Part shown: in pieces, positions 13,968-17,090 of the stretch
Layout: every line of letters begins with the position of its first letter
Position numbering within the stretch: the stretch's first letter is position 1
NCBI GenBank assembly: GCA_016182385.1
Contig: JACPGV010000002.1
Coordinates: 1-53,552, forward strand
Direction of reading: 5' to 3'
DNA from: Candidatus Moraniibacteriota bacterium
Lineage (GTDB): Bacteria > Patescibacteriota > Minisyncoccia > Moranbacterales > UBA1568
Length of the DNA: 53,552 nucleotides
Notes under the pieces: generated by a model
What the model was told of the DNA's origin: nothing
The model's input: the letters and a program-made list of their open reading frames with translations, nothing else
Databases searched by the model: none
Made by a program: the position numbers and the translations under genes

Positions 13968-14672
13968 ATGACGACTCAGTCGATCACGCAAGACCAGGAA
14001 AAGCAACTGAAGCGTTTTCTCGAAGACGCTTCCGTATCAGCGACTCGCTCGGCCCTCGCCCAAGTGCCTCTCGACAAGGAAGGCGCACAGCAGGTCATCG
14101 AGCGGGGGGACGCACTCAAGGCCGAAATCGAACGGGCCACCATCAACGCCCTGAAGAGACTCGGCTCGCGCTACCCGGTGCTTACGGAAACGCGGCTTCT
14201 CAAGCCCGTGGCCCAAGCAACCGTTCCGGCACGAACGAAGCCCTTCAATGTGGCGGAGTTCTACCAGACCGGCCCCGGCCTCTACGTCTACGACACCTTC
14301 GCAGACCGTCTCGACCTCCACGCCAGACAGGCGGTGGACTCGGCTCCCGAGCGTCCCTACGTGGCCTCGCTTCTCAAAGCGAACGCCTACGACAAGGACA
14401 TTCGCAAGGAACTGCCGGAAACCCACCTGTCGACGCTCGAAGACATCGCAGGCCTGATCGAAGCACAGCCCAACGGCAAGTCGGGCTTCCTGCTGAACAA
14501 CGGCTACGCGAACATCTTCTACGTCGAGGGCAAAAACGGTGAAGTCTTCGCCGTGGATGTCTACTGGGGCTCGGACGACCGCGAGTGGGACGTCGGCGGC
14601 TGGGAGCTCGACGAGGATGGCCACTGGGACGCTGACTTCCAGGTTCTCTGCCCAGGCAACGCAGCGCTCTGA
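13968..14672 (+). CDS. DGR target (variable) protein with C-terminal VR
   Basis: 234 aa; the last ~43 codons align to the TR; visibly GC-richer than typical genes in the window. Confidence 0.93.
   Translation: MTTQSITQDQEKQLKRFLEDASVSATRSALAQVPLDKEGAQQVIERGDALKAEIERATINALKRLGSRYPVLTETRLLKPVAQATVPARTKPFNVAEFYQTGPGLYVYDTFADRLDLHARQAVDSAPERPYVASLLKANAYDKDIRKELPETHLSTLEDIAGLIEAQPNGKSGFLLNNGYANIFYVEGKNGEVFAVDVYWGSDDREWDVGGWELDEDGHWDADFQVLCPGNAAL
14542..14662 (+). repeat. DGR variable repeat (VR) including IMH
   Basis: Aligns without gaps to 14992-15112; 16 mismatches opposite TR adenines and one non-A mismatch (14658 A vs 15108 C) at the 3' end. Confidence 0.95.
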
Positions 14673-14673
14673 C

Positions 14674-14695
14674 CCTTTCGCCACTTCGGCAAAGG
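14674..14695 (+). other. Post-VR hairpin, candidate DGR target-recognition element
   Basis: CCTTT(C)GCC-ACTTC-GGCAAAGG immediately after the target stop codon. Confidence 0.5.
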
Positions 14696-14726
14696 ACCCT
14701 TGGACCCTTAGTCTCTTAGACCCTTG
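14695..14726 (+). repeat. 8-bp tandem repeat x4 downstream of the VR
   Basis: GACCCTTG GACCCTTA GTCTCTTA GACCCTTG; a further GACCCTT at 14671. Confidence 0.7.
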
Positions 14727-14760
14727 GAACTACAACAAGTTCCCGGGGTCTTTTTCTTTT
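14718..14760 (+). terminator. Intrinsic terminator of the target gene
   Basis: AGACCC(TT)GGAACT/AGTTCC(CG)GGGTCT stem followed by a T-rich run. Confidence 0.65.
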
Positions 14761-14902
14761 GATACAATGAAAGAGGTGTGTTGGAAATTTCTTTCGGCTA
14801 CGGCTGAAAGGTCAGGATACTGGAAGTGAAATGTGCCAGAGTAGTTGCGGAAACTTTCTTCAACTAGAGTGCCACTTTGTTTTCAAAAAATATAATGCGT
14901 TG

Positions 14903-15150
14903 GTGTCTTGAACTGGCGGACTTCTATGTCCCGCATACGATACAATCCTAAGAGTATTCAAAGGGTGGTGGAATGGATGGTTCAAGGCACAAAGTCTTCG
15001 CCGTGAATGTCAACTGGAACTCGGACAACCGCAAGTGGAACGTCAACGACTGGAAGCTCGACGAGAATGGCAACTGGAACGCTGACAACCAGGTTCTCTG
15101 CCCAGGCCACGCTTCAAATTTCTCTCGTCTTTAAGGCGAGAGTTTTGTTT
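14903..15150 (+). ncRNA. Predicted DGR template RNA (structured 5' leader, TR, 3' hairpin)
   Basis: TATAAT at 14891; stem 14903-14915/14978-14990 closes at the TR start; 3' hairpin 15122-15142 with T tract. Confidence 0.55.
14992..15112 (+). repeat. DGR template repeat (TR) with IMH*
   Basis: AAC/AAT-rich copy of the VR, reading KVFAVNVNWNSDNRKWNVNDWKLDENGNWNADNQVLCPG in the VR frame. Confidence 0.95.
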
Positions 15151-15515
15151 TTAGGCCTTTCTTCCAGCCCCCAAGCATCCGACCGATTTCCTGAAGTTCC
15201 GTAGAGAGTCCGAGGTATTTTTTGTTATCGATTAGCTTATTTTCCCAGCCGATTTGTAGGAAGAATTTGAGAAGATCGGTTTTACCGATGATAGCGGTCA
15301 GATACTGGATTTTAGTTTCCGGCTTTGCGTATTGGGCTCGGAAGAGGAGCTCAAGCGTATCGAGGAAGAGACGATCGATTTTTTCGCCAAATGTGTAACG
15401 ATGAATTTTTGGAATATGAGCGATAAAACTTTGCCACAGCTGATAGGCGGCCTTCAGTTGAACAATGACGCTGATTTGTCCCGATCCTGCGGGGGGGGGT
15501 ATTTCCAGGAATCAT
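15131..15515 (-). pseudogene. avd: DGR accessory variability determinant (Avd), frameshifted at the G9 tract 15491-15499
   Basis: Minus-strand frame reads GQISVIVQLKAAYQLW...PKIHRYTFGEKI...DLLKFFLQIGWE...LQEIGRMLGGWKKGLKTKLSP*; no in-frame ATG/GTG/TTG near the 5' end; ATG 15515 is in frame if one G is removed (127 aa). Confidence 0.85.
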
Positions 15516-16556
15516 TATAGGAAAAAGAAGAAAAAATTAGTCGTTTCTTATGATGATATCATATCCCTCGAGAATCTCCTTGCCGCGTGGAAGGAATTCC
15601 TGAAAGGAAAAAGGAACAAAAAGGACGTCCAGGAATTCGAAGCACATCTTATGGACAATCTCTTCGTGCTCTACGAAGATCTGAAAAACAAGACCTACGA
15701 GCACGGCGGCTATCAGGCTTTTAAAATCAATGATCCGAAGCCGCGCGATATTCACAAGGCGTCAGTGAGAGATCGTCTCGTACATCGCGCCATTTACCGG
15801 ATTCTCTATCCGTTCTTTGACACGCTCTTCATCGCTGATTCGTATTCCTGCCGAGAGGGGAAGGGCACGCACAAGGCACTCGATCGTTTCAGGGTCTTTT
15901 CCCGAAAGGTTTCTTGCAACCATACCAAGACCACTTGGGTGCTCAAGTGCGACATCCGGAAATTTTTTGCATCGATCGATCAGGATATCCTCTTGCGTAT
16001 TCTTCGTGAGTGGATCCAAGACGAAGATATTCTGTGGCTGCTGGGGAAGGTAGTACGAAGTTTTTCTTCTTCGACAGCGCGAAATGTCGGATTGCCGCTT
16101 GGCAATCTTACCTCACAGCTTCTCGTGAACATCTCTATGAATGAATTTGATCAATTCGTGAAACATCGATTGCGGGCAAGATATTACATTCGATACGCCG
16201 ATGACTTTGTCATCTTGTCTCGGGACAAAGTATGGTTAGAGTGTATCTTGGCAGAGATAGGGAGGTTCTTGGATGAAAGGCTACATCTCAAATTGCATCC
16301 GGACAAAGTGTTTATCCAAACAGTCGTTTCGGGTGTCGATTTTCTTGGCTGGATGCACTTTTCTGATCATTGCGTGCTGCGGACGGTGACAAAAAAGAGG
16401 ATGTTCCGGAAACTCTGCGAGAAGAACATTTTCTCGTATCTCGGATTGCTTTCGCATGGGAACGGGTATCGGTTGCGAAGAAAACTCACTTCCTTATTTT
16501 TCAGCGATGGAAAGAAACTGTCTGAGGGTAGGGAGGATATCTTTTTCGACGAGTAG
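15465..16556 (+). CDS. DGR reverse transcriptase
   Basis: ISLENL..AW, PKPRDI...VRDR.VH, CDIRKFF.SI, GLPLGNLTSQ, YIRYADDF, GVDFLG; no maturase or endonuclease domain. Confidence 0.95.
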   Translation: MTLICPDPAGGGISRNHYRKKKKKLVVSYDDIISLENLLAAWKEFLKGKRNKKDVQEFEAHLMDNLFVLYEDLKNKTYEHGGYQAFKINDPKPRDIHKASVRDRLVHRAIYRILYPFFDTLFIADSYSCREGKGTHKALDRFRVFSRKVSCNHTKTTWVLKCDIRKFFASIDQDILLRILREWIQDEDILWLLGKVVRSFSSSTARNVGLPLGNLTSQLLVNISMNEFDQFVKHRLRARYYIRYADDFVILSRDKVWLECILAEIGRFLDERLHLKLHPDKVFIQTVVSGVDFLGWMHFSDHCVLRTVTKKRMFRKLCEKNIFSYLGLLSHGNGYRLRRKLTSLFFSDGKKLSEGREDIFFDE

Positions 16557-17090
16557 CTTCATTTTTTCCAAAGTTTCATTGAAGAATCCGTCGACTAGAA
16601 GTTGTTGTGCTTGTTTTTTTGAAAGACCTCTCGACTGGGCGAAGAAGAGCTGTTTTGGATCGAAAGATGCGATAGCAGCGGCGTGGTGACATTTCACGTT
16701 ATTCGTAAGAATTTCGAGCGTCGGCTTGGCGGATGCTTGGGCGAACGGCGAGAGAAGGAGCGCACGACATTCGTATGAGGCGTCACTTCTCGCGGCCTTT
16801 TTTTCAATTTTTATCAATCCTTCCGAAGAAAACGTCGCCTCATCGAAGAGAGCCGTTTTTACGATCGCACGGGAGACGGTATTGGGCGCGGAATGTTTTT
16901 GGACGAGAGAAAGAGTTTTTTGTTCCGTATTTTTTCCCGTGAAAAGGGCGAAAATATGCGCCTCGGCGCCAATGTCTGTGAGTTCGAACGTGATACTTCC
17001 AAAACGATTGAGAAGAAAGAAAACAGCCTTCTCATTCTTTTTGAGACGATAGGTGTTGTTTGTGTCGGTTGAAATATCAAGAAATCGCAT
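16494..17090 (-). CDS. sufD: SufD-like protein, short form
   Basis: KPTLEI..NNVKCHHAA, FFAQSRGL; follows sufB. Confidence 0.8.
   Translation of the reverse strand: MRFLDISTDTNNTYRLKKNEKAVFFLLNRFGSITFELTDIGAEAHIFALFTGKNTEQKTLSLVQKHSAPNTVSRAIVKTALFDEATFSSEGLIKIEKKAARSDASYECRALLLSPFAQASAKPTLEILTNNVKCHHAAAIASFDPKQLFFAQSRGLSKKQAQQLLVDGFFNETLEKMKLLVEKDILPTLRQFLSIAEK

Follow-up and report, generated by a model that had tools for sequence, protein, structure and literature searches.

A G/C run shared by the divergent avd and reverse transcriptase genes of a Patescibacteria diversity-generating retroelement

The window (the whole stretch of DNA analysed here, i.e., the 53,552 nucleotides of contig JACPGV010000002.1 in the Candidatus Moraniibacteriota assembly GCA_016182385.1) holds a complete diversity-generating retroelement (DGR). 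On its minus strand there is a gene that is, close to certainly, the accessory gene avd of a DGR of the type found in Patescibacteria (also known as the candidate phyla radiation, CPR), with the gene order designated architecture B3. The start codon of this gene is parted from its body by a homopolymer of nine G (nine C on the avd strand) that lies at the same time within the 5' coding end of the reverse transcriptase (RT) gene on the opposite strand. Similar runs are found at the same junction in most of the related loci that we have examined. We propose that the run may act as a slippage switch that would make the expression of Avd, and partly that of the RT, stochastic, a reading to which we assign a probability of about 0.5. 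The part of these observations that appears to be new is the conserved homopolymer that splits the start of avd from its body and is common to the RT, since we have not found it in print: full-text literature searches, limited to main texts, retrieved no paper on a homopolymer in DGR genes, and in the two preprints that mention "poly-G" the term refers to read trimming.

The avd gene and its interrupted frame

The minus-strand reading frame is open from stop to stop at 15131-15511 (126 codons). Its translation matched the Pfam profile PF22296 (bAvd) with an E value of 9.3e-13 and 49 bits, above the cut-off of 40 bits, and the NCBIfam equivalog model NF033474 (DivGenRetAVD, "diversity-generating retroelement protein Avd") with an E value of 1.8e-17 and 63.5 bits, which is under the 80-bit cut-off of that model. 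The structure predicted by AlphaFold from an alignment of 28 sequences of the same family has a mean predicted local distance difference test (pLDDT) score of 90.8 and is a four-helix bundle (helices at residues 6-26, 31-56, 60-86 and 92-120). The top fold match of this model in the PDB was 8ub7_B, the Avd chain of the Bordetella DGR ribonucleoprotein (TM score 0.79, root-mean-square deviation 1.9), followed by the Avd crystal structure 4dwl (TM 0.79-0.89). The kinship is visible only through the fold and the Pfam and NCBIfam profiles, as a search of the PDB sequences with the Avd profile gave no matches at E values up to 0.01. The protein is basic, with a computed isoelectric point of 9.77, and Wu et al. 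(2018; NAR 46:11, PMC5758913) give 9.5 +/- 0.7 for Avd proteins and describe Avd as a homopentamer. The initial annotation had postulated an Avd-like protein on this strand and had named profile and fold comparisons as the way to check it; both were carried out, the Pfam match being above threshold and the fold that of the Bordetella Avd, and the identification was not refuted.

The same annotation had placed the gene at 15131-15515. The Avd body is indeed there, what is missing is a single open frame. The interval is 385 nt long, which is no multiple of three, and the ATG at 15515 opens a different frame, a 54-aa open reading frame (ORF) at 15351-15515. This ATG and the Avd body differ in register by one base, with the G9 run between them. 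The run is located at 15491-15499, in the 5' coding ends of both genes, where it is read as Gly-Gly-Gly in the RT and as Pro-Pro in avd. On one side of the run are the start codon (15515-15513) and a short leader, together covering 15500-15515 of the minus strand. On the other side, at 15131-15490 and likewise on the minus strand, lies the body of the gene down to its stop codon (15131-15133), as delimited by translation, profiles and fold. The Avd frame has its first ATG, GTG or TTG only from residue 108 onward, which is why the gene was absent from the ORF track, an omission that the initial annotation had correctly pointed out. The cut between the start and the body frame also accounts for the lack of any product of this avd in a collection of 5.8 billion proteins, where the RT of the same locus is present (P0121).

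One interpretation of such an arrangement would be that this avd copy is simply broken, i.e., that a frameshift has become fixed in a decaying DGR and that the run is a functionless mutational hotspot. At G9 there is no route from a canonical start to Avd, the genome has three DGRs so that one of them could be redundant, and in another of the three (L001) avd is likewise out of frame with its ATG. However, the body has kept 122 codons without a stop, together with all 9 invariant and 17 near-invariant residues of the family (as listed for the first sequence), and its structure is modelled with confidence (see the pLDDT above). Besides, the RT is intact, the differences between the template repeat (TR) and the variable repeat (VR) are cleanly adenine-specific, and a neutral hotspot would not remain uninterrupted in 65 of 79 loci (the wider sample described below) at protein identities of 43-77%. 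We consider decay highly improbable.

The G/C run in related loci

An Avd match was obtained in 37 of 107 genomes of the same family, and 31 distinct family loci carry both genes (L009 is truncated where its contig ends). In species-representative genomes, a scan gave at least 560 related loci, the best 80 of which constitute our wider sample (six of these coincide with records of the family loci). A G/C run of at least 8 nt is present in 27 of the 31 family loci, with lengths of 8 (three loci), 9 (seven), 10 (thirteen) and 11 (four), and in 65 of 79 wider loci, where the lengths go from 8 to 13 with a mode of 9-10. In the wider loci the run persists at Avd protein identities down to ca. 43% (range 43-77%). 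Within the source genome (775,714 bp, 43.3% G+C) G/C runs of 7 nt occur nine times and those of 8, 9, 10 and 11 nt once each, and the three that reach at least 9 nt are exactly those of its three DGR avd/RT junctions. The run thus appears to be selected and specific to this junction.

The only other G/C run of at least 8 nt in the genome is a G8 at C4:8434-8441 (positions 1035-1042 of locus L123). It is found between the hexamers TTGACT and TAGAAT (15-nt spacer). Some 230 nt further downstream begins a 118-aa ORF whose N terminus resembles a signal peptide and which has no Pfam match. The run could be a length-variable promoter spacer.

The nearest relatives of the protein are informative about where avd truly starts. 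The 27 best Avd database matches are 65-87% identical to it, and 12 of them begin upstream of a Pro-Pro(-Pro) stretch. In the five nearest full-length proteins (P0001-P0005, 77-83% identity) a leader of the form M-T-x-x-x-N-T/P-P-P continues in frame into the G-x-x-Q-I-S/N-V of the body, and the frame opened by ATG 15515 in the window reads M-I-P-G-N-T-P-P. One of these in-frame proteins, P0005, shares 115 of 126 residues (91%) with the Avd of L005, a family locus whose avd, like that of the window, is frameshifted at G9. For the remaining 15 of the 27, the annotated start is an internal codon within helix 1, at a depth that varies, and the proteins are 99-114 aa long, as expected of a gene caller confronted with a true start in the wrong frame. 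In 20 of the 27 family loci with a run an ATG is located 15-21 nt from it, with flanks that have otherwise diverged, and all four family loci lacking the run have canonical in-frame starts for both avd and RT. On the strength of the in-frame relatives, the conserved spacing of the ATG and the canonical starts of the run-less loci, ATG 15515 is taken as the true avd start and the run as a putative part of the coding sequence. The RT start at ATG 15465 is also probably real, because the leader that it opens is present in the relative P0129.

We have also considered that the run might not code for Avd at all. Translation would then begin downstream of it at a non-canonical codon, ATC 15475-15473 or ATT 15466-15464, and the run would be a shared element of the 5' untranslated or promoter region, acting on transcription or on ribosome binding of the two divergent genes irrespective of frame. 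The alignment column of the window's ATT is TTG in 13 of the 28 family sequences (13 of the 18 Leu codons found there), there is an AGGA 9 nt before the ATC, and a start at residue 13-16 would still give the whole domain, as the NCBIfam match begins at residue 22. Yet the window has no canonical start in this downstream region, run-less loci use in-frame canonical ones, and in five close relatives the frame that begins at the upstream ATG passes intact through the run. Moreover, from the run to the ATT column the amino acids are conserved while their codons vary synonymously (Pro in all four of its codons in the L-L-P-L-L group; Ser as AGC, AGT or TCC in the group of the window), which also speaks against a non-coding stretch. 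The location of the G8 of C4 between promoter-like hexamers and the flat distribution of frames described next would fit a non-coding element, which we regard as very unlikely on balance.

When the run length alone was varied in silico in the window, three outcomes were obtained. As assembled (G9), the RT is a product of 363 aa from ATG 15465 and avd gives the 54-aa out-of-frame product. With G8 or G11 an RT of 359-366 aa is read from TTG 15476 or 15458, alternative plus-strand starts that come into frame at these lengths, and an Avd of 127-128 aa from ATG 15515. With G7 or G10 there is neither RT nor Avd. Across the related loci all three phases are found. The nearest avd ATG is in frame in nine of the 27 family loci, one base off in one direction in nine and in the other direction in the remaining nine; in the 65 wider loci the classes have 19, 19 and 27 members, the largest being the one in which the loss of one base would bring the ATG into frame. 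Upstream starts put both genes in frame in 8/27 family loci and 10/65 wider loci. With the phases spread over all three classes, the length of the run appears to drift freely relative to the reading frame. There are also two pairs of entries with a truncated Avd and a truncated RT from two close relatives, P0006 with P0141 (contigs of equal length, 6878) and P0008 with P0159 (likewise, 7179); if the members of each pair share a contig, both genes are out of frame together there.

The distribution of phases bears on another way of making Avd. The run could be stable in the DNA, and a low constitutive amount of full-length Avd could arise by recoding, either through RNA polymerase slippage on C9 or through a +1 ribosomal shift on CCC-C. 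CCC-C sites and long homopolymers promote slippage, and a flat frame distribution combined with intact Avd bodies is what frame-insensitive expression would leave. The window needs exactly a +1 shift, the equivalent of one base fewer, and this is the class of its whole subclade (window, L005, L006, L007 and L010) as well as the commonest one in the wider set (27/65 against 19 and 19), although the excess is small and the loci are related. The stoichiometry is less favorable, given that the Bordetella complex requires a molar excess of Avd (the 8ub7 fold matches are chains B, C and E, and Wu et al., 2018, describe Avd as a homopentamer), so that a low-yield shift would be a poor source of it. 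All in all, recoding seems to us unlikely.

Run length and a proposed slippage switch

If the run is a slippage switch, the assembled length corresponds to a state in which the RT would be read through from ATG 15465 and avd is frameshifted, and because of this frameshift full-length Avd (127-128 aa) would require slippage at the run. Most probably this would occur by a slipped-strand change of the DNA tract to G8 or G11, lengths at which the RT would also be in frame from TTG 15458/15476; slippage of the RNA polymerase or the ribosome would be a less likely alternative. Hypermutation would then be stochastic, as only the subpopulation with the right length would hold both proteins, by analogy with Bordetella, where the RT needs Avd. 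The host may be prone to such changes. MutS domain V (PF00488) was not found in the genome, which is 98.55% complete (the control was found in 11 of 14 reference genomes; MutL was not searched for), and without MutS long homopolymers would be unusually unstable.

A more elaborate version, which we advance very tentatively, is that the run could be a three-state stochastic controller, in which lengths of 3k would give RT alone, 3k+2 both RT and Avd (mutagenesis competent) and 3k+1 neither. In the absence of MutS, a small and continuously renewed fraction of the cells would diversify the target and most would keep the VR fixed. The same device, with a frame logic specific to each lineage, would operate across most Patescibacteria DGRs.

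As to length differences between near-identical loci, L016 (G9) and L018 (G10) differ in the run and have flanks that are 100% and 97% identical. In the other near-identical pair, L011 and L012, both runs are G10. For the locus of the window itself, Logan contigs from three sequencing runs (X1-X3, depth 16-21) all have G9, with no differences and no gaps over 14400-16600; these runs belong to one study and are possibly the source data, and contigs lose minor variants. A fourth contig of low depth (X4, depth 2-5) begins at 15508, just beyond the run, and is uninformative. Two pattern scans of metagenomes added little. The first, with the two flanks of the tract in the window and a variable gap, had no matches for this locus, and the second, with a degenerate left flank plus G8, recovered six contigs of which only L038 and L041 are DGR-like, with no new near-identical pair. 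Three contigs share the same left flank in a G+C-rich context (L039, 358-377, G8; L040, 1175-1194, G11; L042, 3654-3673, G10). This context is not that of a DGR, and we take them for an unrelated length-variable poly-G locus.

The same data make it extremely unlikely that the frameshift is an assembly or sequencing error and that the true run is G8 or G11, with an intact gene. Homopolymers are error-prone, and one base fewer would restore the frame. Nevertheless, the Logan assemblies of the three runs are identical (with the reservation that they come from one study and perhaps from the same reads), G9 leaves the RT in frame with an ATG that opens the same leader as in P0129, and two thirds of the related loci, from many assemblies, are likewise out of frame.

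Several observations weigh against the switch. The locus has shown no length polymorphism, with G9 in the contigs of all three runs of the one study, and only one of the two independent near-identical pairs of loci differs in run length. By a permissive rule, in which any canonical start in the body frame counts, including those downstream of the run, both genes are translatable in 18/27 family and 48/65 wider loci, so that the run is not obligatory for expression in most of them. Similarly, for 12 of the 30 close RT relatives the annotated start is an ATG further downstream than the position of the run. The flat distribution over the three phases would be equally expected of an element that acts independently of frame. 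As to the coupling of the two genes, 24 of the 27 family loci admit a run length that puts both in frame, against ca. 17.7 expected (hand count), but in the wider set the figure is 38/65 against 37.0 expected (by a crude automatic method). Since the coupling is not supported in this wider set, and the window at G9 has the RT on and Avd off, we make no claim that the run switches both genes together. The public RNA runs contain at most 5% of the sampled words.

Gene layout, the surrounding retroelement and known systems

The overall layout conforms to the initial annotation. The avd gene sits on the opposite strand between the TR (14992-15112) and the RT ORF (15465-16556), and its ATG at 15515 and the RT ATG at 15465 produce a head-to-head overlap of 51 bp, practically the value proposed. 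Such an antisense position is no novelty. It corresponds to architecture B3, the norm in CPR, which are ultra-small bacteria of groundwater. According to Wu et al. (2018; PMC5758913), B3 is TR-(avd)-RT, where the parentheses denote the reverse strand, and makes up 90% of their CPR DGR set. The three DGRs of the source genome (776 kb) all have this layout. The two genes are divergent, and abut or overlap, in each of the 31 distinct family loci where both occur (31/31), and a divergent adjacent pair is found in 79 of the 80 wider Patescibacteria loci, the remaining one having given no RT match. The records of the related loci bear names of Patescibacteria, the nearest being Candidatus Moranbacteria/Moraniibacteriota, followed by Paceibacterota, Nomurabacteria, Uhrbacteria and others. 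The position and strand of avd are therefore ordinary for these bacteria, and the architecture was already known.

Regarding the other two DGRs of the source genome, L001 (C2:205643-208918) has a G11 at the junction and an avd ATG one base out of frame, and L003 (C6:6809-10111) has a G10, with avd (129 aa, ATG) and RT (ATG) both in frame and overlapping by 73 bp. For a genome of 776 kb, three DGRs are a heavy load. Several records (L043, L045, L047, L051, L060 and others) carry a Patescibacteria-type Avd and RT under automatic titles such as "uncultured Bdellovibrionales", "Gammaproteobacteria" or "Saccharibacteria", which look at odds with their gene content and their near-identity to Moranbacteria records.

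The overlap raises the possibility of antisense regulation, as put forward in the initial annotation, in which the avd and RT mRNAs would pair through their 5' ends and regulate one or both genes, something compatible with the other readings. If both ATGs are used, the mRNAs would be complementary over at least 51 nt. Even in the run-less relatives L032 and L033 the two start codons are only ca. 8-11 bp apart, which means that each promoter must sit inside the other gene and that overlapping 5' transcript ends would be inherent to B3. Nonetheless, the overlap varies from none to 73 bp across loci and its length is thus not conserved, a consensus scan found no promoter-like (sigma-70-like) site for either avd or RT, and divergent overlapping transcription is common without any regulatory role. 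We deem such regulation distinctly unlikely.

The DGR of the window is composed, in this order, of the target gene with its VR, a structured leader RNA, the TR, a terminator-like hairpin, the antisense avd and the RT. The target gene (13968-14672, plus strand, from the ORF list) codes for a protein of 234 aa with no Pfam or NCBIfam match and has the VR (14542-14662, plus strand) near its 3' end. VR and TR (both on the plus strand) are the two copies of a 121-nt repeat with 86% identity. Of the 17 mismatches in the 121 nt, 16 are at adenines of the TR (which has 34), all of them at codon positions 1 or 2, and the remaining one is a C-to-A change close to the 3' end. DGRs often have an inverted repeat after the VR, just past the target stop. 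The candidate found here (hairpin 14674-14695, plus strand) was rejected because it folds no better than shuffled sequences (z -0.57).

The RT (363 aa, plus strand, present in the ORF list) matches the RVT_1 profile with 92 bits. Its nearest solved structure is the Bordetella bRT, 8ub7_A (E value 2.2e-41, residues 29-318 against residues 9-285 of the chain), retron and group II RTs matching much more weakly (5e-23). The stretch L-G-N-L-T-S-Q is aligned with I-G-S-L-T-S-Q of bRT, and includes an S-Q motif that we take to be DGR-specific.

Two RNA elements flank the TR. The one downstream (15122-15152, plus strand, identified by folding and comparison with shuffles) is a hairpin at 15122-15142 with a T-run after it, terminator-like for the TR RNA, in which a 9-bp stem (15122-15130 with 15134-15142) closes a loop of three nucleotides, 15131-15133. 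This loop is exactly the complement of the avd stop codon, as the initial annotation had remarked. The fold has -14.8 kcal/mol on the plus strand (z -3.27, equalled by 1 of 200 shuffles) and -9.1 kcal/mol as minus-strand RNA, and this greater stability in the plus sense is as expected of a terminator, or of a 3' element, in the TR transcript. Most of 32 family loci have the hairpin, with differing stem sequences, as well as the TTTTG run and the same position of the stop codon.

The other element, directly 5' of the TR (14910-14983, plus strand, ca. 75 nt), is a conserved structured RNA with three helices (14910-14914/14979-14983, 14918-14921/14928-14931 and 14945-14954/14957-14966), supported by covariation in 21 family loci, where 9 of the 17 predicted pairs have compensatory changes. 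It has no Rfam family, and the sole Rfam match over 14600-15700 was a chance one to mir-219 (E 0.21). This RNA may be the part of the template RNA that binds RT/Avd, located 5' rather than 3' of the TR. It suggests that in B3 the protein-binding or priming part of the template RNA could lie upstream of the TR and not in the TR-RT spacer, which would make room between TR and RT for an antisense gene. Further upstream, at 14869-14896 (plus strand), the consensus scan found a promoter-like site (GTGCCA, 16-nt spacer, TATAAT); it was the sole one, with 1.3 expected in shuffles, which makes it weak evidence.

The practical consequence of the interrupted frame is that gene callers are blind to this avd and cut the N terminus of 15 of its 27 closest relatives, so that surveys could wrongly score DGRs as avd-less or as having a short Avd. 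In more general terms, DGRs are very common in CPR, and how constant mutation of the target is avoided is an open question, to which a conserved slippery run gating two essential proteins, if our proposal is true, would be a simple answer.

The DGR of the window agrees with the CPR B3 DGRs of Wu et al. (2018; PMC5758913) in how TR, reverse avd and RT are ordered and oriented, in having the VR at the 3' end of a neighboring target gene, and in host lineage. Neither the 5' overlap of avd and RT, nor the homopolymer, nor a frame-disrupted avd is mentioned in the passages of that work considered here. The DGR of the Bordetella phage BPP-1 (mtd-avd-TR-brt) resembles the one described here in the fold of Avd (TM 0.79-0.89), in the RT (E value 2.2e-41) and in the adenine-specific mutagenesis. 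There, however, avd is co-oriented and upstream of the TR, whereas here it is antisense and downstream; the conserved structured RNA is in the TR-RT spacer there and 5' of the TR here; and in comparison with bRT our RT has an extra leader of ca. 28 residues, which carries the run. The closest analogy for the run itself is provided by the intragenic poly-G/C contingency loci (slipped-strand phase variation) of Campylobacter, Neisseria and Haemophilus (for instance, those in the abstracts of PMC8355987 and PMC3786947). As in them, a G/C run, of 8-13 nt in the DGR loci, is located near the 5' end of the coding sequence and sets the frame by its length. The run of the window is, along these lines, longer than any in its genome outside the DGR junctions. 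The gated function would be different, a mutator instead of a surface structure. And in contrast to those loci, a single run serves here two genes on opposite strands, whose in-frame lengths coincide only partly, with G9 suiting the RT alone and G8 or G11 both.

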